The notes beneath the pieces were generated by a model. It had not been told where the DNA came from and did no database searches. It was given only the letters and a program-made list of their open reading frames with translations. From the IMG/VR virus record IMGVR_UViG_2778261447_000001, positions 1-9,120 of that record: 9,120 nucleotides of DNA; one strand, given 5' to 3'. This stretch comes from a virus (lineage: Duplodnaviria; Heunggongvirae; Uroviricota; Caudoviricetes). Position numbers and translations under genes: made by a program. Of the stretch, positions 1 through 9,120 are shown in pieces; position 1 is the stretch's first letter, and every line of letters starts with the position of its first letter.

Positions 1-130
1 ATGCTTCCATCGGAAACGATGATCTGGCAGCCTGAGTTCACAGATAAAACACTCTCCAGGAAACCCGGGGCGGTTCAATCAGGTTAAATTCACCAATACC
101 TACTGGCTGCAACAGCAGACCAAACAGGCG

Positions 131-553
131 TTGTATAACGGAGCCACACCAATTAGCTTCACAGCAACGGTTACTGCTGATGCTGATTCAGACAGCAGTG
201 GCGATGTGACGGTTACGCTTTCTGGTGTTCCGATTTATGACACTACAAACCCGCAGTACAACTCTGTAAGTCGTCAGGTAGCGGCAGGCGATGCCGTATC
301 TGTGGTAGGCACTGCTAGCCAGACAATGAAGCCAAACCTGTTCTATAACAAGTTCTTCTGTGGACTTGGCTCTATCCCACTACCGAAACTGCACAGTATT
401 GATTCTGCTGTTGCAACATATGAAGGTTTCTCTATCCGCGTACATAAATACGCAGATGGCGATGCCAACGTGCAAAAAATGCGCTTCGACTTACTGCCTG
501 CATATGTGTGCTTTAACCCTCACATGGGCGGTCAGTTCTTCGGTAATCCGTAA
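131..553 (+). CDS. Probable 3' portion of the major capsid (coat) gene; start codon unresolved. The frame is open from nt 23, and the first candidate start is TTG at 131.
   Basis: Long ORF with gene-like, beta-rich composition (T/S/V/G/A) ending at TAA 551-553, followed at once by a strong intrinsic terminator, as expected after a highly expressed capsid gene. It sits just upstream of the gp4-like gene, as coat does in P22-like phages. Similarity to my recalled P22 coat C-terminus is only loose. No ATG/GTG with a Shine-Dalgarno lies in frame. Confidence 0.5.
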   Translation: MYNGATPISFTATVTADADSDSSGDVTVTLSGVPIYDTTNPQYNSVSRQVAAGDAVSVVGTASQTMKPNLFYNKFFCGLGSIPLPKLHSIDSAVATYEGFSIRVHKYADGDANVQKMRFDLLPAYVCFNPHMGGQFFGNP

Positions 554-557
554 TAAC

Positions 558-584
558 AAGGGGCTTACGCCCCTTTTATGTTTT
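558..584 (+). terminator. Rho-independent terminator after the coat-like ORF
   Basis: Perfect 7-bp GC-rich stem AAGGGGC (558-564), loop TTAC, GCCCCTT (569-575), followed by T-tract TTTTATGTTTT. Confidence 0.65.
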
Positions 585-594
585 AAGGAAAAAT

Positions 595-780
595 ATGGAT
601 CGCATGAGTGTATTCCTTGCCGCAGATAACGAATCCGGGCATGTACAGGCCGTTATCGCAGAAAAAGACTTCCAGTTTTTCGAAAAGTTGGGCTTTGTTG
701 CCTCAGTTGATGAATTGAAACCGACCAGTAAGCGAGGTCGTAAGGCGGAAGACAATGGCAACAGTACTGACAAAGGGTGA
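595..780 (+). CDS. Small acidic hypothetical protein (61 aa)
   Basis: ATG at 595 preceded by a strong Shine-Dalgarno (AAGGAAAAATATG) immediately after the terminator. Overlaps the gp4-like start by 26 nt in another frame. No recognisable domain. Confidence 0.4.
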   Translation: MDRMSVFLAADNESGHVQAVIAEKDFQFFEKLGFVASVDELKPTSKRGRKAEDNGNSTDKG

Positions 781-1237
781 GATCGTCCTTTTTGCGCTTC
801 GTAAGTTTGCTATTGCTTCTAATGCATCGCTGACTGATGTTGAGCCGCAATCAATTGAAGATGGTGTAAATGATCTGGAAGATATGATGTCCGAGTGGAT
901 GATTAACCCCGGCGACATTGGTTACGCTTTCGCAACTGGAGATGAGCAACCATTACCAGATGATGAGTCAGGTCTTCCAAGAAAATACAAACACGCAGCA
1001 GGCTATCAGTTATTGCTGAGAATGCTATCTGATTACAGCCTTGAGCCAACTCCGCAAGTTCTCAGTAACGCCCAACGCTCATATGATGCCTTGATGACCG
1101 ACACTCTGGTTGTTCCTTCAATGCGACGACGTGGAGATTTTCCTGTAGGACAGGGTAATAAATATGACGTGTTTACATCTGACCGATATTATCCAGGCAA
1201 TCTCCCTCTGATTGATGGCGATATCCCAAACGCATAG
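755..1237 (+). CDS. P22 gp4-like head completion / tail accessory protein (160 aa)
   Basis: Motif ASLTDVEPQS and overall layout match my recollection of P22 gp4 (166 aa; ...ATLTDVEPQS...). Sits at the expected position before the gp10-like gene. Shine-Dalgarno AAGGCGGA upstream of the ATG. Confidence 0.8.
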   Translation: MATVLTKGEIVLFALRKFAIASNASLTDVEPQSIEDGVNDLEDMMSEWMINPGDIGYAFATGDEQPLPDDESGLPRKYKHAAGYQLLLRMLSDYSLEPTPQVLSNAQRSYDALMTDTLVVPSMRRRGDFPVGQGNKYDVFTSDRYYPGNLPLIDGDIPNA

Positions 1238-1245
1238 GTGAATAA

Positions 1246-2664
1246 ATGCCGATTCAGCAACTTCCGCTTATGAAAGGTGTCGGCAAAGACTTTCGAAACG
1301 CCGACTATATCGACTATCTGCCAGTGAATATGCTGGCTACACCCAAAGAAATCCTCAACAGCAGCGGATATCTTCGCTCATTCCCGGGCATTGCCAAACG
1401 TTCTGATGTGAACGGCGTATCGCGAGGCGTCGAGTACAACATGGCGCAGAATGCTGTTTATCGCGTGTGTGGTGGCAAGCTGTATAAGGGCGAAAGTGAA
1501 GTCGGTGATGTTGCCGGAAGTGGTCGCGTATCAATGGCGCATGGTCGGACATCACAGGCGGTAGGCGTTAATGGTCAACTGGTCGAGTATCGTTATGATG
1601 GCACGGTTAAAACAGTCTCAAACTGGCCTACAGACAGCGGATTCACGCAGTATGAGTTAGGTTCAGTTCGCGACATTACGCGCTTACGTGGGCGTTATGC
1701 GTGGTCAAAAGACGGAACTGATTCATGGTTTATCACTGACCTTGAAGACGAATCGCACCCTGACCGATACAGTGCACAATATCGCGCAGAATCGCAGCCG
1801 GACGGTATCCTCGGTATCGGGACATGGCGAGACTTCATCGTCTGCTTTGGTTCATCGACTATTGAATATTTCTCCCTGACTGGTGCAACCACTGTTGGTG
1901 CTGCTTTGTATGTCGCACAGCCATCACTGATGGTGCAGAAAGGTATTGCCGGGACTTACTGCAAAACGCCATTCGCTGATTCTTATGCGTTCATCAGCAA
2001 TCCGGCAACAGGTGCTCCGTCTGTATACATCATCGGATCCGGTCAGGTTTCACCAATCGCCAGCGCGAGCATTGAGAAAATTCTCCGCTCCTACACTGCT
2101 GATGAACTGGCTGATGGTGTGATGGAGTCTCTGCGATTTGATGCGCATGAGCTGCTGATTATCCATCTTCCGCGCCATGTTCTGGTGTACGACGCATCTT
2201 CAAGCGCCAATGGTCCGCAATGGTGTGTGCTGAAAACAGGTCTGTATGACGATGTGTACCGCGCTATCGACTTCATTTACGAAGGCAATCAGATAACGTG
2301 CGGCGATAAGCTGGAGTCCGTGACCGGGAAATTGCAATTCGACATCAGCAGCCAGTATGGGCTACAGCAAGAACACCTGCTGTTTACTCCGTTGTTCAAA
2401 GCGGATAACGCCAGATGCTTCGATCTGGAGGTGGAATCATCCACTGGCGTAGCTCAGTACGCCGACCGCCTGTTCCTCTCTGCAACCACTGACGGCATCA
2501 ATTACGGTCGTGAGCAGATGATTGAGCAGAATGAACCGTTCGTTTACGACAAACGCGTTTTGTGGAAGCGTGTCGGGCGCATCAGGAAAAATGTCGGCTT
2601 CAAATTGCGCGTTATCACTAAGTCACCTGTCACTCTGTCTGGCTGCCAGATAAGGATTGAGTAA
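1246..2664 (+). CDS. P22 gp10-like tail accessory (tail hub) protein, 472 aa
   Basis: Same length as P22 gp10 (472 aa) and same position between the gp4-like and needle genes. Shine-Dalgarno AGGTGA before the ATG. Stop overlaps the next start (TAATG). Confidence 0.8.
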
Positions 2665-3365
2665 TGGCGGATTCGAATCTCAATGTGCCGGTAATCATCC
2701 AAGCTACGCGGCTCGATACATCAATCCTTCCACGCAATATATTCAGCCAGTCTTACCTGCTGTATGTCATAAATCAGGGTGCTGATGTTGGCGCAATTGC
2801 CGGGAAGGCAAATCAGGCTGGTCAGGGCGCTTACGATGCTCAGGTAAAAAACGATGAACAGGACGTCGAACTGGCAGATCACGACGCAAGAATCACCGCA
2901 AACACAAAAGCGATAAATCTCCTTGAGGTCAGGTTAACAACCGCCGAAGGGAAGATAGTCGTACTGCGTAGCGATGTTGATTACTTGCTGGATGAGGTTA
3001 TCGATATTCAGGCGCATCTGGTCACTGTTGACCAAAGACTGGATGGCGTAGAAAGCGATGTATCTGACATTAAGAGTGATTACGTATCGAAAACCGTAAC
3101 CGAATCGCAGTCTCTTGCGTCACCGCTGGATGTAAAAACATCATATTCAGTTGATGGAATTCAGGTCGTTGGAGCAAGGCAGACCGGATGGACTGCAGCC
3201 ACAGGTACGCCACTTCTTGGCTCATTCAACGCAAACCAGTCATACACTGTCGGCACTACGTACACGCAATCCGAAGTCGCAGCTCTCGCTACAGGTTTGC
3301 AGCAGGCGCGGCAGCGTATTCTGGCGCTTGAAACGGCACTTAGATTACATGGGCTGATTGACTGA
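2664..3365 (+). CDS. P22 gp26-like tail needle (plug) protein, 233 aa
   Basis: N-terminus ([25 protein letters not shown]...[35 protein letters not shown]) and C-terminus (...[15 protein letters not shown]...[21 protein letters not shown]) match recalled P22 gp26. Identical length of 233 aa. Start overlaps the gp10-like stop. Confidence 0.9.
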
Positions 3366-3820
3366 TGATTACATTCAAACCAACGCGAAACATCGACCTG
3401 ATCGAAGCAGTAGGAAATCACCCTGACATTATCGCCGGGAGCAACAACGGTGATGGATACGACTACAAACCTGATTGCCGTTACTTTGAGGTGAACGTGC
3501 ACGGGCAGTTCGGCGGCATTGTTTACTATCAGGAGATTCAGCCGCTGACATTCGATTGCCACGCAATGTACCTGCCAGAGATTCGCGGCTTCAGCAAGGA
3601 AATCGGGCTGGCGTTCTGGCGATACATTCTGACTAACACCACCGTTCAGTGCGTCACATCGTTCGCCGCACGCAAATTCCGCCACGGGCAGATTTACTGC
3701 GCAATGATTGGCCTTAAGCGTGTCGGAACCATCAAGAAATACTTTAAAGGCGTTGATGACGTGACTTTTTACAGCGCCACACGCGAAGAACTAATCGACT
3801 TCCTGAATCACGGGAGATAG
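3365..3820 (+). CDS. Hypothetical virion protein at the P22 gene-14 position (151 aa)
   Basis: ORF translationally coupled to the needle gene (TGATG overlap) and lying between the needle and gp7-like genes. I do not confidently recognise the sequence. Confidence 0.55.
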   Translation: MITFKPTRNIDLIEAVGNHPDIIAGSNNGDGYDYKPDCRYFEVNVHGQFGGIVYYQEIQPLTFDCHAMYLPEIRGFSKEIGLAFWRYILTNTTVQCVTSFAARKFRHGQIYCAMIGLKRVGTIKKYFKGVDDVTFYSATREELIDFLNHGR

Positions 3821-3822
3821 CC

Positions 3823-4515
3823 ATGTTATATGCATTTAAGCTGGGCAGAAAACTGCGCGGCGAGGAACCTTATTGCCCTGAAAAAGGCGGGAAAGGTGGC
3901 AGTTCTGATAAAAGCGCAAAGTATGCAGCAGAAGCTCAGAAGTATGCCGCAGACCTGCAAAATCAGCAGTGGCAGACGATCATGAAAAACCTTGCTCCGT
4001 TCACGCCTCTTGCGGAGCAGTATGTTAACCAGCTTCAGAACCTTTCCAGTTTAGAAGGTCAGGGGCAGGCACTTAATCAGTATTACAACTCTCAGCAGTA
4101 TAAAGACCTTGCAGGTCAGGCTCGTTACCAGAGTCTTGCTGCTGCGGAGGCTACGGGAGGACTTGGTTCGACAGCCACAAGCAATCAACTGGCTACGATC
4201 GCGCCGACTCTCGGTCAGTCTTGGTTGTCAAACCAGATGAGCAATTACAACAATCTGGCAAACGTTGGGCTTGGTGCTCTGCAAGGTCAGGCAAACGCCG
4301 GGCAGACGTACGCCAACAACATGAGCAGCATTGCACAGCAAAGCGCAGCTCTTGCCGCTGCTAATGCCAATAAACCATCAAGTCTTCAGACTGCAATTAG
4401 CGGTGGCACGTCTGGTGCGATTGCCGGTGCAGGTCTTGCCAGCCTTTTGGGAACATCAACGCCTTGGGGCGCTGGCATTGGTGCTGGTATCGGATTGCTT
4501 GGCTCGTTGTTTTAA
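3823..4515 (+). CDS. P22 gp7-like ejection (E) protein, 230 aa
   Basis: Position and size match P22 gp7 (229 aa). Q/N/A-rich body with a Gly/Ala-rich hydrophobic C-terminal tail (GAIAGAGLASLLG...GAGIGAGIGLLGSLF). Shine-Dalgarno GGGAGA before the ATG. Confidence 0.75.
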   Translation: MLYAFKLGRKLRGEEPYCPEKGGKGGSSDKSAKYAAEAQKYAADLQNQQWQTIMKNLAPFTPLAEQYVNQLQNLSSLEGQGQALNQYYNSQQYKDLAGQARYQSLAAAEATGGLGSTATSNQLATIAPTLGQSWLSNQMSNYNNLANVGLGALQGQANAGQTYANNMSSIAQQSAALAAANANKPSSLQTAISGGTSGAIAGAGLASLLGTSTPWGAGIGAGIGLLGSLF

Positions 4516-4524
4516 GGGGTAATC

Positions 4525-5856
4525 ATGGCTACTTGGCAAGGAACAAACGGCGGATTGTTGGCTGGTATCGGCGGCGTCAACTCAAACGCTCCGAGCGTAA
4601 ATGACATCGGCAATACGCTTCAGCTTATCAGGCAGAACAATGATATTGAGCGTTCAGGCGCTAACAATGTTGGGCTGACTGCTTTGCAAGGCCTTTCAGG
4701 TATTGCGGGGGTGTTTCAGCAGGAAAAGCAGGCTCAGCGGCAGAAAGAATTTCAGCAGGCATACGCTAATGCTTATGCGTCTGGTGATCGCGGTGCTTTG
4801 CGTCAGTTAGCTACTCAATATCCAGACCAGATTGAATCCGTTCGTAAAGGCATGGGATTCATTGATGAAGAGCAGCGCAATTCTATCGGCACCTTAGCGG
4901 CTGGCGCACGCCTTGCGTCATCGTCTCCTGATGCGATGGCTAACTGGCTGCAATCTAACGCCGGTGAGTTAGCTCGTGTTGGCGTTAATCCTCAGGATGT
5001 CGCTCAGATGTACCAACAGAACCCGCAGCAGTTCGGCGAATTTGTCGATCACCTGGGGATGGCCAGTCTCGGACCCGAAAAATACTTTGACCTTCAGGAT
5101 AAAATGCAGGGTCGCCAGGTGACCATGCGCGGTCAGGATCTGGATTCGCAAACCGCCGCCCGGAATCAGGCAATCACAATGCGTGGGCAAGATATCCAGG
5201 CAAATTTAGGTCAGCAGCGCATTAATCTGGACGCAGAAACAAACCGCATTAACAACGAAAATAAGCACCTTGACCGGATGCTATCAGCAGAAACTAACGA
5301 CCTGAAGCGCCAGGAAATACAGAGCCGCATAGCAGCCAACAACCAGAAGTTGCAGCAGAAGCAGCAAGAGCTAAATGATGGCTACAAAGACGGCATCAAC
5401 ACTCTCACAACCAGCATGTTCACTCTGAACGATATCGTTAATTCTCCTGCACTTAAGAGCATTACAGGCTTACGTGGAGCAATCCCCAACGTTCCAGGCT
5501 CACAAGCTGCAGACACTCAGGCGCGACTTGATACCTTTAAATCCCAAGCATACCTGACAGCGGTTCAGGCCATGCGAGGCATGGGCGCACTTTCTGATGC
5601 CGAGGGCAAAAAGCTCGACCAGGCTGTTGGTTCGCTGCAGAACTCACAGAGCGAGGAGTCCTTTCGTCGCAACGCTGGCGTCATCCTGAACACGCTCAAC
5701 CAGAAGCGTAATGAGGCGGTTGGTAAGTACGTTCAGCAAAACGGTATCAAGCGAGTGGAAGCGCCTCAGGCTTCTATAGATTACCTGAAGCAGCACCCCG
5801 AGCTGTCAATCGACTTCATTAATCGCTACGGATATCTTCCATCTTTGGGGCAGTAA
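4525..5856 (+). CDS. P22 gp20-like ejection protein, 443 aa
   Basis: Second of three consecutive ejection-protein genes (P22 order 7-20-16). Shine-Dalgarno AAGGGG before the ATG. Q/N-rich with internal short repeats. Confidence 0.7.
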   Translation: MATWQGTNGGLLAGIGGVNSNAPSVNDIGNTLQLIRQNNDIERSGANNVGLTALQGLSGIAGVFQQEKQAQRQKEFQQAYANAYASGDRGALRQLATQYPDQIESVRKGMGFIDEEQRNSIGTLAAGARLASSSPDAMANWLQSNAGELARVGVNPQDVAQMYQQNPQQFGEFVDHLGMASLGPEKYFDLQDKMQGRQVTMRGQDLDSQTAARNQAITMRGQDIQANLGQQRINLDAETNRINNENKHLDRMLSAETNDLKRQEIQSRIAANNQKLQQKQQELNDGYKDGINTLTTSMFTLNDIVNSPALKSITGLRGAIPNVPGSQAADTQARLDTFKSQAYLTAVQAMRGMGALSDAEGKKLDQAVGSLQNSQSEESFRRNAGVILNTLNQKRNEAVGKYVQQNGIKRVEAPQASIDYLKQHPELSIDFINRYGYLPSLGQ

Positions 5857-8250
5857 ATGGCTAATTACCGTGATTTGTTAGAGCAGGCTGGCGCACGTTA
5901 CGGTGTGCCAGAAGGGTTGATGACTGCACTGGGTGCCAAGGAGTCTTCTTACAACCCTGCCGCAGTAAGCTCCGCCGGGGCTGTAGGATTGACTCAGGTC
6001 ATGCCTGGGACATGGCGTGATATGGGTTATACCGATGAGCAAATGCAAAACCCCGAATATCAGGCTGACGCTGGCGCGCGCTATCTGGCAAAGATGTACC
6101 AGCAGTTTGGTAACTGGCGTGACGCTCTTCAGGCTTATCACGACGGTCCCGGCAACGTTATGAAGGCAAAGCGTGGTGAATATACGCCAGGACCTGAAGG
6201 CCGCGGTTACGTTGATGATCGCTTTGCTCAATGGGCGGGTGACCCGGTGACAGACTCAACAGTCGAACAGCGCGCCACCTCTGCAAAGGTACATCCTCAG
6301 CAAGACCCTAACAACCCGTTTGCACAACTGGAAGCACAGTCATCCGAACAAGTATCGGCATCAGGCGTGCAGTCAGACCCAAATAATCCATTTGCTCAGA
6401 TTGAGCAGCAGGCAGCCAGTCAGCAGCCACCTCAACCCGTAAGTTCTGTCGCACCGAAACCTGTTCAGCAGCAAGGCGGAATAATGTCTGACCTTGGTAA
6501 TGGACTTGCTGAAACCGGGCGCGGCTTACTACAGGCAGGAATCAACGTAGCGAACATACCTTCTGAACTCACTGATGCTGTAACAAGCGCGGCGGCTTGG
6601 GCTGGCGGTAAACTCGGTATTGGCGATGGTACATATCAACCAGCACCACGAGTAACAACGCAGGGATTAGAGCAGGACTTTGGCCTTAAGCAAGGCGCGC
6701 TGACTCCACAAACGACAGAGGGAAGGGTATTTGCTGAAGCATTGCCTTACCTCACTCCCGCTGGCATTGAGAGAGCGGCAACACAGGCACCAACACTTGC
6801 TGGTCGAATTGCTCAGGGGGCAACTCGCCTTCTAGCAGAAAACGCAGTTGGATCACTTGCTGCAAATAGTGCGAAAGATGATGCGGAAGCACTCGCCACC
6901 GATTTAGGCGTTGGTGTACTTGCTGGCGGTGCTATTAACGCTGCCGGACGTGGATTAGGTGCTGCTTATCGTGGCGTTCGTGGTGCTATCGCGCCAGAAG
7001 CGCAGCAGGCTATCAGATTTGCAGAGCGTGAAGGAGTTCCTCTGCACACCACAGACCTGTTACAACCCACTTCCCGCGTCGGAAAAATGGCGCAGACTAC
7101 AGCAGAAAATATCCCTCTGGCTGGCACAAGCGGAATGAGAGCAACGCAACAGGAAGCGAGAAGCCAGTTGGTGCAGAGATTTGCCGATAAATTCGGTGAG
7201 TATGATCCAGCGGTTGTTATTGACAGCCTTAAAGCGAAAACATCAGGAATTCGTCGTGCCGCCGGTAATCGACTGGAGCAGGTACAGAATGCAATGGCAG
7301 GAATCAACATTCAACCTGCCAGAGCAATTCAGCAGATAGATACTGAGATATCTAACCTGCAGAAGCTTGGTAAGGTCGCTGATAACGAGACGATTTCAAA
7401 ACTTCAATCCTATCGTGATGAGCTTATTCGCAATGCTGGTCCTGATGGTCCGGTAAATCTGGATTTGAAGCAATTAAGCGATCTACGCAGCCAGTTCAGA
7501 ATGGACGTGAAGGGTGAGCGACCAGTGTTACCAAACCGCTCCGATGCCGCCATTCAGCGCGTTTACAAGGCGATGACAGACGATATCAATGGTGCCATTG
7601 GTCAGAATCTTGGCAATGATACTCTCCGTAAATATCAGCAGGCCAATGCCGTCTACGCTGACGAAGCAGCGAAACTAAAGAATACCAGGCTGAAGAATGT
7701 TCTCATGAAAGGCGACCTGACACCGGAAGTTGTCAACAACATGCTATTCAGCAAGAACAAATCGGAAATTAAGACGCTGTATAACTCAGTTGGTCGTGTT
7801 GGCAGGGCGCAAATGCGCAATGGCATCATTGGGAAGGCGATGGAGAAATCTGGCGGATCCCCTGACCAGTTCCTTCGACAGCTTAACATCCTGCAAAACC
7901 AGACTGGCATCACATTTAAGGGGCAGGACGCTGCTTATCTGAAAGGATTGAAAAACTACCTGCAATCCACGCAGCAGGCTGCAAAAGCGGCAGTAACAAC
8001 ACCAACAGGGCAGCAAACCATCCCGTTCATTATCGGATATGGGACAGCAATGAACCCTGCGACAACTGGCGCAGCAGTAAGCTACGGACTTCTTACTCGC
8101 GCCTATGAGAGTGAGCCATTCAGAAATGCAATGCTCCGAATGGCAAACACCCCACGCGGATCAACAGCGTTTGAGAAAGCCATGCAGCAGGCGCAAAAGG
8201 CCATTAACGCTCTGACGCAGGGGGCTAAGTCTGATGCGTTGTCAGAATAG
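5857..8250 (+). CDS. gp16-like ejection protein with an N-terminal lytic transglycosylase (SLT/GH23) domain, 797 aa
   Basis: ATG abuts the gp20-like stop (TAAATG). The N-terminal ~120 aa carry SLT motifs: catalytic Glu in AKESSYNP, then GLTQVMPGTW and AYHDGPGN. The remaining ~600 aa match the size and position of P22 gp16 (609 aa). Confidence 0.85.
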   Translation: MANYRDLLEQAGARYGVPEGLMTALGAKESSYNPAAVSSAGAVGLTQVMPGTWRDMGYTDEQMQNPEYQADAGARYLAKMYQQFGNWRDALQAYHDGPGNVMKAKRGEYTPGPEGRGYVDDRFAQWAGDPVTDSTVEQRATSAKVHPQQDPNNPFAQLEAQSSEQVSASGVQSDPNNPFAQIEQQAASQQPPQPVSSVAPKPVQQQGGIMSDLGNGLAETGRGLLQAGINVANIPSELTDAVTSAAAWAGGKLGIGDGTYQPAPRVTTQGLEQDFGLKQGALTPQTTEGRVFAEALPYLTPAGIERAATQAPTLAGRIAQGATRLLAENAVGSLAANSAKDDAEALATDLGVGVLAGGAINAAGRGLGAAYRGVRGAIAPEAQQAIRFAEREGVPLHTTDLLQPTSRVGKMAQTTAENIPLAGTSGMRATQQEARSQLVQRFADKFGEYDPAVVIDSLKAKTSGIRRAAGNRLEQVQNAMAGINIQPARAIQQIDTEISNLQKLGKVADNETISKLQSYRDELIRNAGPDGPVNLDLKQLSDLRSQFRMDVKGERPVLPNRSDAAIQRVYKAMTDDINGAIGQNLGNDTLRKYQQANAVYADEAAKLKNTRLKNVLMKGDLTPEVVNNMLFSKNKSEIKTLYNSVGRVGRAQMRNGIIGKAMEKSGGSPDQFLRQLNILQNQTGITFKGQDAAYLKGLKNYLQSTQQAAKAAVTTPTGQQTIPFIIGYGTAMNPATTGAAVSYGLLTRAYESEPFRNAMLRMANTPRGSTAFEKAMQQAQKAINALTQGAKSDALSE
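6304..6411 (+). repeat. Tandem duplication of a short peptide motif (DPNNPFAQ[L/I]E) in the linker of the gp16-like protein, period 72 nt
   Basis: gaccctaacaacccgtttgcacaactggaa (6304-) and gacccaaataatccatttgctcagattgag (6376-) encode QDPNNPFAQLE and SDPNNPFAQIE. The two copies differ mostly at synonymous positions. Confidence 0.6.
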
Positions 8251-8319
8251 CTTCGCAAACACCAGGAACGTGCAAAAACCAAATATGTAGAACGCAATAT
8301 TCAGCATATCTCTTTGCAT
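8242..8319 (-). CDS. Candidate small hydrophobic peptide (25 aa, MQRDMLNIAFYIFGFCTFLVFAKLF)
   Basis: Hand-translated - strand ORF. ATG lies 4 nt after a GGAGG Shine-Dalgarno and 20 nt after the mnt stop. Predicted single transmembrane-like helix. Overlaps the last 9 nt of the gp16-like gene. Too short to judge by composition. Confidence 0.25.
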   Translation of the reverse strand: MQRDMLNIAFYIFGFCTFLVFAKLF

Positions 8320-8339
8320 AAATCCTCCGTAATGGATGG

Positions 8340-8600
8340 TTATCTGCTGTCTTTTTTATATAGCTTCTTGAGCGTATCAAAGACAATTTTCTTAACCATA
8401 TCAGATTGTTGTTCTGCCATACGCTCTGCATCGTCAATGTAAACTGATGCAGAGCTTTGTTTAGCCAACGATTCTTCAATCGCTGCAATTATCTCTGAGT
8501 TCAGCGACCTGTTATTCATCTTCGCGCGCTGTTTAATTTTCGCGTGAAGTTCATGCGGAAGTCTCAAGTGAAACTGCGCCTCGTCGTATTTGCTGTACAT
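8340..8600 (-). CDS. mnt: Mnt-like ribbon-helix-helix (Arc/MetJ family) repressor, 86 aa
   Basis: C-terminal half DAERMAEQQSDMVKKIVFDTLKKLYKK closely matches recalled P22 Mnt (DAERLADEQSELVKKMVFDTLKDLYKK). The N-terminal strand FHLRLPHELHAKIKQRAKMNNRSLNSEI matches the RHH pattern (P22: FNFRMPMEVREKLKFRAEANGRSMNSEL). Start chosen at the internal ATG (8600), which has GAGG 8 nt upstream; the upstream ATG at 8633 has no Shine-Dalgarno. Confidence 0.8.
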   Translation of the reverse strand: MYSKYDEAQFHLRLPHELHAKIKQRAKMNNRSLNSEIIAAIEESLAKQSSASVYIDDAERMAEQQSDMVKKIVFDTLKKLYKKDSR

Positions 8601-8721
8601 CCTTGATGCCTCACCAGTTGGGTGGAATGGCATCGTAACTTACTGGATAAATACTCAATAGTACCATTTCGGTATGCAATCACATCATGGTTGCATCATA
8701 TCATTCGTCTGGAGCAATGAA
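8601..8721. promoter_or_regulatory. Divergent intergenic control region between mnt (-) and tailspike (+); expected site of the mnt promoter and operator
   Basis: 121-bp AT-rich spacer between divergent starts. Contains an inverted repeat ATGCAA-N11-TTGCAT (8674-8696) and a short CACC-N5-GGTG dyad (about 8611-8623). The promoter hexamers are not confidently assignable by eye. Confidence 0.35.
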
Positions 8722-9045
8722 ATGTCAGATATCACCGCAAATGTTGTGGTAAGCATGCCTTCGCAACTCTTCACTATGGCGCGTTCTTTTAAAGCGGTTG
8801 CCAATGGCAAAATTTATATCGGAAAAATTGACACTGACCCGGTAAATCCTGAAAACCAGATTCAGGTTTATATAGAGAACGAAGACGGCTCTCACGTTCC
8901 TGTTTCGCAACCAATCATCATTAATGCTGCTGGATATCCGGTATATAACGGACAGATTGCCAAGTTCGTAACTGTGCAAGGCCACTCTATGGCTGTTTAT
9001 GATGCGTACGGTTCGCAGCAGTTCTATTTCCCGAATGTACTTAAG
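8722..9045 (+). pseudogene. Tailspike gene (P22 gp9-like), N-terminal head-binding domain only; truncated after codon 108 by an IS2 insertion
   Basis: Translation [108 protein letters not shown] is near-identical to recalled P22 tailspike residues 1-108. Shine-Dalgarno GGAG lies 7 nt before the ATG at 8722. After ...FPNVLK the sequence switches to IS2 terminal sequence. Confidence 0.85.
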
Positions 9046-9120
9046 TGGATTTGCCCCTATATTTCCAGACATCTGTTATCACTTAACCCATTACAAGCCC
9101 GCTGCCGCAGATATTCCCGT
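9046..9120 (-). mobile_element. IS2 insertion sequence terminus (partial; the element continues past the window end), transposase on the - strand
   Basis: 9046-9120 is the reverse complement of the recalled IS2 end ...CGGGAATATCTGCGGCAGCGGGCTTGTAATGGGTTAAGTGATAACAGATGTCTGGAAATATAGGGGCAAATCCA. On the - strand it encodes the transposase OrfB C-terminus ...[20 protein letters not shown] with its stop at 9057-9059. Confidence 0.8.

Follow-up and report, generated by a model that had tools for sequence, protein, structure and literature searches.

A probable small membrane-peptide gene convergent with gene 16 of P22-like prophages as a candidate superinfection-exclusion factor

The SieA proteins are among the described systems closest to the subject of this report, a small open reading frame (ORF) at 8242..8319 on the minus strand of a stretch of 9,120 nucleotides (nt) from a tailed-phage record (IMG/VR IMGVR_UViG_2778261447_000001, positions 1 to 9,120; hereafter the window), which belongs to a P22-like (Lederbergvirus) prophage from Escherichia/Shigella. 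SieA (of phage P22; types A, B, and C) is an inner-membrane protein of 164-212 amino acids (aa) that is expressed from the prophage and blocks DNA injection. It crosses the membrane with several helices, carries a FxRYPxEAxxFNK motif on the cytoplasmic side, and is encoded convergent with and directly downstream of gene 16. SieA accompanies a P22-type gp16, and escape from it involves the changes G532W and P546S in gp16 plus changes in gp20, which are also needed (Leavitt et al., 2024, mBio, PMC10883804).

Another closely related system is the RNA STnc6030 of the Salmonella phage BTP1, a transcript of 786 nt (D23580 403942-404727) that is expressed in the lysogen and lies antisense to the tailspike gene's 5' end and the gp16 gene's 3' end. 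It was called non-coding because it holds no ORF of more than 60 aa. Cloned behind a constitutive promoter, STnc6030 conferred total immunity to BTP1 and none to P22; the titer of spontaneously induced BTP1 was unchanged in the presence of the clone, a result flagged by the authors as unexplained. Four distinct single-nucleotide polymorphisms (SNPs) that permit escape from STnc6030 fall within 36 bp (404041-404078), and all of them are non-synonymous in gp16. Strains expressing STnc6030 constitutively served as lawns in plaque assays, and toxicity was not reported (Owen et al., 2020, Microb Genom, PMC7067206). A review from 2025 still classes STnc6030 as a cis-antisense RNA.

The locus treated here is thus partly known as STnc6030 of BTP1, whereas no report appears to exist of the peptide gene that it contains, of how this gene is conserved among P22-like phages, or of its probable role. 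The proposal put forward, at about even probability, is that of a "micro-SieA": the exclusion credited to antisense STnc6030 would really be exerted by an encoded membrane peptide of 23-25 residues that blocks the part of the DNA-delivery conduit formed by gp16.

The small ORF and its conservation

The ORF starts with ATG and comprises 25 codons plus a stop codon. Its product, MQRDMLNIAFYIFGFCTFLVFAKLF, starts with a polar N-terminus (MQRD..N), continues with a hydrophobic run of about 15-16 residues, and closes with K-L-F; its hydropathy fits a single membrane helix (Kyte-Doolittle maxima of 1.84 over 19 residues and 2.31 over 15 residues). A Shine-Dalgarno (SD) sequence, GGAGG, is located at 8324..8328 on the minus strand (CCTCC on the plus strand), 4 nt before the ATG, which in turn lies 20 nt behind the stop codon of an mnt-like gene. 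The ORF ends inside the terminal codons of gene 16, which cover its stop codon and the two codons before it, resulting in a convergent overlap of 9 nt, and the gap between gene 16 and mnt measures 89 bp. The ORF listing and the sequence therefore bear out the first-pass annotation of this DNA, which had described exactly this ORF with its GGAGG and ATG, a single predicted membrane helix, the overlap with the gp16-like gene, and an interval of about 90 bp. That annotation had also conceded that the ORF could be due to chance. Indeed, 22 ORFs of at least 20 aa overlap 7800-9120, so that a frame of 25 codons is unremarkable by itself; as short ORFs are this common here, the case for the gene rests on comparison with relatives.

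For this comparison, loci were gathered by similarity to the C-terminal 199 residues of gp16 alone, i.e. without reference to the small ORF. Contigs representing one genome per species yielded five usable loci (Escherichia, Ca. Erwinia, Pseudescherichia, and Citrobacter), and IMG/VR contributed 80 loci found with the gp16 of the window and 80 found with a diverged Citrobacter gp16; the 164 loci with enough flanking sequence were evaluated. An ATG-initiated ORF of 23 or 25 codons is present at the same position and in the same frame in 164/164 of these gp16-anchored loci, with no frameshift. Conservation of the peptide frame in related prophages had been proposed earlier as a check, and not one frame-breaking indel was encountered. 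Among known phages, Sf6, IME10, vB_EcoP-683R2, 720R6, Gally, and VSe13 carry the ORF intact, the last at about 85% nucleotide identity. By any route, 208 occurrences were found, all of them intact except one with a lost stop codon. This sole variant (IMG/VR contig 2713896831_000006; L173, from 224) encodes a peptide extended to 52 aa that runs antisense into gene 16.

The peptides fall into two subfamilies. The form of 25 aa, MQRD[MTL][LIM]N[IL]AFYIFGFCTFLVF[AE]KLF, is found in E. coli, Shigella, and some Salmonella, and its region is present in 334/5426 complete E. coli genomes (about 6%). The form of 23 aa, M[EDN]RD[LW]LNFAFLIFG[LIV][VC]VG[KV][LA]LF[AT], occurs in Salmonella, Citrobacter, Klebsiella, Erwinia, and others, and was detected by tblastn in the phages BTP1, L, ST64T, ST104, g341c, MG40, and SPN9CC. 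Both share the pattern M-x-R-D-x-L-N-x-A-F-x-I-F-G, and their difference in length amounts to exactly 6 nt.

Since avoidance of stop codons is too weak as a stand-alone test (P of about 0.2 and 0.04 for the two subfamilies), synonymous and non-synonymous changes were analyzed. Between the subfamilies, synonymous sites are saturated (proportion of synonymous differences, pS, 0.99), compared with a proportion of non-synonymous differences (pN) of 0.27, giving a pN/pS of 0.275; within the subfamilies the ratio is 0.29 and 0.22. For every one of the five remaining frames, at least one subfamily shows stop codons or a pN/pS above 1.5. Of the single-nucleotide changes possible in the 23-aa family, 38 of 39 synonymous but only 29 of 124 non-synonymous changes occur (Fisher p = 1e-17), and the 25-aa family shows the same bias (18/36 versus 33/156, p = 0.001). 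Protein-level purifying selection acts on this frame, and judged from sequence comparison the small ORF is almost certainly a real protein-coding gene. The suggestion of a small hydrophobic-peptide gene in the first-pass annotation is thereby upheld, and its reservation about chance is countered by the 164 intact frames and the coding pattern of substitutions. The GGAGG motif itself is found in 93/164 loci and its 4-mer core in 25 more.

This gene has passed through annotation without notice. It is unannotated in the records of Sf6, IME10, Gally, VSe13, 683R2, 720R6, BTP1, L, ST64T, and phiKp_30, as well as in PGAP annotations of E. coli genomes. Searches of Pfam, PHROGs, and NCBIfam with both subfamilies returned no meaningful match (at E values up to 1, only a chance hit to Adipogenin, 0.13), and a scan of the region against Rfam at a permissive threshold gave only a chance match to a snoRNA inside mnt. 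An exact look-up of eight peptide variants in a collection of 15 billion proteins found none of them, and a full-text literature search found neither the peptide strings nor small-protein work on BTP1.

Linkage to gene 16 and exchangeable surroundings

All 208 occurrences of the ORF (208/208) are convergent with, and overlap, the 3' end of a gp16 gene of the Sf6/L/BTP1 type, with overlaps of 9-12 nt. The representative of this gene in the window encodes a gp16-like DNA-ejection protein of 797 aa (5857..8250, plus strand). The constant partner of the small ORF is the 3' end of gene 16 and not a ribbon-helix-helix (RHH) regulator. The coupling to mnt that had been claimed for this locus stands only in part: here the two genes are very likely co-transcribed, because they are separated by a gap of 20 nt without a terminator, but mnt is just one of at least four interchangeable upstream contexts.

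In the first context, seen in roughly 60/164 loci (Sf6/BTP1 type), no gene lies upstream and the divergent tailspike gene starts about 95 nt away. The second, with mnt at a gap of 20 nt, is realized in about 35/164 loci, i.e. about a fifth, including IMG/VR loci, and IME10 shows the same arrangement. In the third (about 25/164 loci), a gene for a lipoprotein of 171-173 aa (PHROG 6067) precedes the ORF at a gap of 21 nt, and in the fourth a divergent lipoprotein gene (orf62) takes this place in L, ST64T, and phiKp_30. A module specific to mnt is ruled out by Sf101, in which the same mnt abuts gene 16 without the small ORF, and by Sf6, which has the small ORF without mnt. The two lipoprotein genes adjoining the peptide gene are unrelated to each other and small, and both encode an LAGC lipobox: the gene of Gally (L006 1362-1877) is co-oriented and located 21 nt upstream, while orf62 of phage L (L300 1129-1422) is divergent. 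They may represent further exclusion or conversion genes.

Both ends of the small ORF coincide with mosaic junctions. The window is similar to Sf6, Gally, VSe13, and others as far as 8320, one base past the ATG, and to some E. coli prophages as far as 8244, in the stop codon of the ORF, where an unrelated AT-rich segment follows. In E. coli 504239 and MS6192 (L297 and L298, 1565-1762), which have the gp16 of the window up to the stop codon of the small ORF, an AT-rich segment of about 190 bp takes the place of the ORF, a precise cassette replacement. The string GGAGGATTT-ATG moves together with the ORF into unrelated upstream contexts, and the same GGAGGATTTATG is found in Erwinia and Citrobacter loci without mnt. 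From the junctions at both ends and the SD sequence moving along with the frame it follows that the unit is a cassette of SD and ORF placed on the 3' end of gene 16.

In the stand-alone contexts, the region of about 95 nt that separates the small ORF from the start of the tailspike gene matches the ORF in conservation (L001 1669-1763 in Sf6, L299 2406-2500 in BTP1, and L011 2170-2265). It contains a hairpin with different sequences per lineage (CCGGACA-N10-TGTCCGG versus CCGCACAAG-N6-CTTGCGC) as well as direct repeats of TTGCGY. An invariant -10-like sequence, GTTATAAT, precedes the ATG by about 22 nt, with no -35 element at a spacing of 16-18 nt. This region could be a promoter/operator or an element of the tailspike 5' untranslated region.

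Exclusion by the peptide and competing explanations

The position of the primers NW_295/NW_296 places the 786-nt STnc6030 clone at 2095-2880 of the BTP1 locus (L299). The 23-aa ORF of BTP1, MERDLLNFVFLIFGLVVGKLLFA, is contained in this clone with its native GGAGG (L299 2501-2572, corresponding to STnc6030 nt 407-478) and is one of two ATG ORFs of at least 15 codons on the sense strand of STnc6030. BTP1 and the window thus share one locus, in which the BTP1 ORF is the 23-aa positional orthologue, convergent with a homologous gene 16. They differ in that the 5' half of STnc6030 is replaced by mnt in the window and the tailspike gene is cut by an IS2 element, and homology to the STnc6030 region is limited to the small ORF and the part antisense to gp16. 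The window peptide, a member of the 25-aa subfamily, is about 50% identical to that of BTP1, and the published exclusion concerns the BTP1 clone only.

The STnc6030-escape region corresponds to nt 650-687 of this RNA and to residues 583-595 of BTP1 gp16 (ILGIGTVTNPALV). In an alignment of gp16 C-termini, these residues are matched by P22 540-552, with P22 P546 opposite BTP1 V589, and P22 G532 aligns with an invariant Gly eight residues upstream of the segment; the P22 numbering was validated, as residues 532 and 546 are G and P. The gp16 segment altered in SieA-escape mutants (PMC10883804) consequently aligns with the one altered in STnc6030-escape mutants. Its homologue in the window, the proposed target patch, comprises gp16 residues 725-737 (IIGYGTAMNPATT; 8029..8067, plus strand), one of two variable patches within the otherwise conserved last 200 residues.

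The peptide gene and sieA also share their genomic position. SieA genes of type A (33 loci, L303-L335) and type B (E. coli HS1, L336 25463-26101; its product carries the FxRYPxEAxxFNK motif) are convergent with a P22-type gene 16 and follow it after 21-22 nt, and the small ORF sits between gene 16 and the tailspike gene as sieA does, in agreement with the slot assigned to it in the first-pass annotation. No locus combines type A or B with the peptide, and SieA is absent from the 164 loci that have the peptide; the two are alternative occupants of one slot, the peptide accompanying gp16 of the Sf6/L/BTP1 type. By descent they are distinct: P22 SieA matches PHROG 7745 at 9e-109, whereas the peptide, with its 23-25 aa and one predicted inner-membrane helix, has neither a PHROG nor a Pfam match and lacks the FxRYPxEAxxFNK motif. 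The common position and the escape sites in the gp16 C-terminus point to functional analogy and not to family membership; by this analogy the peptide may work like SieA. The peptide gene is not what is left of sieA or of the 171-aa gene found upstream, as the peptide matches neither and the 171-aa gene encodes a lipoprotein without similarity to SieA.

In the proposed mechanism, the peptide would be a single-helix inner-membrane protein of 23-25 residues. The ORF is oriented leftward, against the late operon, and would therefore be expressed from the prophage, in the window as the second cistron after mnt and in BTP1 as part of the lysogen-expressed STnc6030. The peptide would then stop the gp16 of an incoming phage from completing the DNA-delivery conduit, acting on the hydrophobic, glycine-rich patch that lies some 60-72 residues before the C-terminus of gp16, much as the larger SieA acts on P22-type gp16. 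Excluded phages would be superinfecting ones with the same gp16 type. Such a peptide explains the protein-level selection, the escape by single amino-acid changes in gp16, and the coincidence with the SieA-escape sites. It also explains why induction of the resident prophage is unaffected, because a block of entry is irrelevant to a genome that is already inside the cell. The chance that the peptide is the exclusion effector is put slightly above even. Among the functions that the first-pass annotation had considered, the exclusion module is the best-supported reading.

The published model, in which the RNA acts by antisense alone, is the foremost rival and is considered possible with a distinctly lower probability. 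Exclusion would come from pairing of STnc6030 with those parts of the late mRNA that cover gene 16 and the tailspike gene, and the small ORF would be irrelevant to exclusion and have another role at the membrane. This model is in line with a lysogen-expressed transcript of 786 nt that is antisense to the 3' end of gp16 and the tailspike gene's 5' end, with the clustering of escape SNPs in 36 bp near the STnc6030 3' end, and with the lack of exclusion of P22, which has no nucleotide similarity there (PMC7067206). However, one mismatch in a perfect duplex of several hundred nt should not abolish pairing, and the escape-SNP region shows no unusual structure marking a kissing loop (z = -0.45). Antisense action also fits poorly with the unaffected induction of the resident prophage, with escape SNPs that all alter the gp16 protein, and with main Northern bands of about 500 nt instead of 786 nt. 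Moreover, a role of the RNA cannot produce protein-level selection on the small ORF.

Several points weigh against exclusion by the peptide. All four escape SNPs being non-synonymous is not statistically decisive, and their clustering could reflect an RNA-RNA kissing site, as the authors of the STnc6030 study proposed; a dual-function RNA, acting through both peptide and antisense pairing, is possible as well. The fact that SieA and the peptide are mutually exclusive is confounded by the type of gp16. With 15-17 residues, the hydrophobic run is short for spanning a membrane, and residues 2-5 at the N-terminus vary in some E. coli prophages (QSG, QSC, QKD, and HRD). The SD sequence is weak in the Sf6-type and lipoprotein contexts, and consensus scans for a flanking sigma-70 promoter or a terminator at stand-alone copies of the ORF found none. 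Translation, insertion into and location in the membrane, and causation of exclusion by the peptide instead of antisense pairing are deductions from these comparisons and the published phenotype.

A further alternative, raised for this locus before and judged improbable, is a small membrane toxin, either of the type I toxin-antitoxin kind or regulated by mnt, which would depolarize the membrane and be held in check by the antisense transcript of the late operon or by Mnt. In size and hydrophobicity the peptide resembles Ibs, ShoB, TisB, and DinQ, and it shares with type I toxins in general (these four and Hok/Ldr) a length in the range of 19-50 aa, a single hydrophobic helix, and overlap by an antisense transcript. 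Its ORF is fully overlapped by such a transcript during lytic growth, and in the window it follows an RHH repressor gene. Unlike those toxins, the peptide has no match to a toxin family in Pfam, NCBIfam, PHROGs, or Rfam and is strictly linked to the gene of a phage ejection protein. A dedicated antitoxin small RNA, promoter, or structure was looked for and not found, including a structured RNA at the small ORF (z = -0.48). The mnt gene is a neighbor in only about a fifth of the loci, and defective prophages such as the one in the window retain the ORF though their late operon is silent. Constitutive expression of the BTP1 homologue from a plasmid, with toxicity not reported (PMC7067206), likewise speaks against this idea.

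An origin of the frame by chance in a T-rich non-coding spacer, or as what remains of a larger gene, such as sieA, after its deletion, for which one could cite the abundance of short ORFs, the silence of every gene caller, and the weakly significant absence of stop codons, is effectively excluded by intact frames at every gp16-anchored locus, a subfamily difference of only 6 nt, a conserved start codon and SD sequence, strong enrichment of synonymous changes, and no similarity to SieA or other neighbors.

The surrounding prophage and the meaning of the locus

In the window, virion genes are followed by the gp16-like gene, the mnt-like gene, and the start of the tailspike gene (from 8723, plus strand). 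The gp16 of the window is longer than those of BTP1 and Sf6 (797 aa versus 655-665) and contains a near-duplicate motif, DPNNPFAQ[LI]E.Q, within a Q-rich linker; its close relatives bear the PGAP label of lytic transglycosylase domain proteins.

The mnt-like gene (8340..8633, minus strand), the cistron located 5' of the small ORF in the likely mnt-peptide transcript, encodes an RHH repressor of 97 aa. It matches Arc (PF03869, 9.3e-15) and Repressor_Mnt (PF11423, 8.8e-15) of Pfam, both above cut-offs, and PHROG 795 (2e-40); with an Arc-like RHH domain and the Mnt C-terminal domain both present, it belongs to the Mnt/Arc repressors. As in the immI region of P22 (mnt-arc-ant with the sar RNA), a bona fide repressor gene of this family thus lies between gene 16 and the tailspike gene and is read leftward, but neither the ORF list nor an Rfam scan revealed arc, ant, or sar in the window, and the peptide gene is not part of P22 immI. 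This mnt is an "orphan" that differs from the P22 gene in length (97 versus 83 aa) and is directly divergent from the tailspike gene; Sf101 and IME10 show the same layout. The intergenic region of 89 bp between mnt and the tailspike gene contains the inverted repeat TGCAA-N11-TTGCA. A promoter-like site, CTGACA-17 nt-AATGAT (8700..8728, minus strand), faces mnt and is a candidate promoter of the mnt-peptide transcript; it comes from a consensus scan that found two such sites in the region where 1.9 are expected, which lends it weak support. No terminator was found between gene 16 and mnt or after the small ORF.

The terminus of an IS2 element occupies 9042-9120 and cuts the tailspike gene after about 107 codons; the prophage is therefore defective. 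The insertion site corresponds to the position of the STnc6030 promoter and transcription start site in BTP1, inside the tailspike gene.

The phages Sf6, L, ST64T, and BTP1 have been studied heavily, yet none of the annotations, family libraries, and protein collections searched contains this gene. Cut-offs on ORF length, here more than 60 aa, can misclass prophage transcripts as non-coding. If exclusion by the peptide holds true, a phage "antisense RNA" of textbook listings would become the mRNA of a micro-protein, and the puzzle noted by its discoverers, an induced prophage that is not inhibited, would be solved. A peptide of 23-25 residues would then achieve at this patch of gp16 what SieA does there with 164-212 residues, and studies of the passage of podovirus ejection proteins across the inner membrane would gain a minimal tool. 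An unrecognized exclusion system would thus reside in Sf6, L, ST64T, BTP1, and roughly 6% of complete E. coli genomes.

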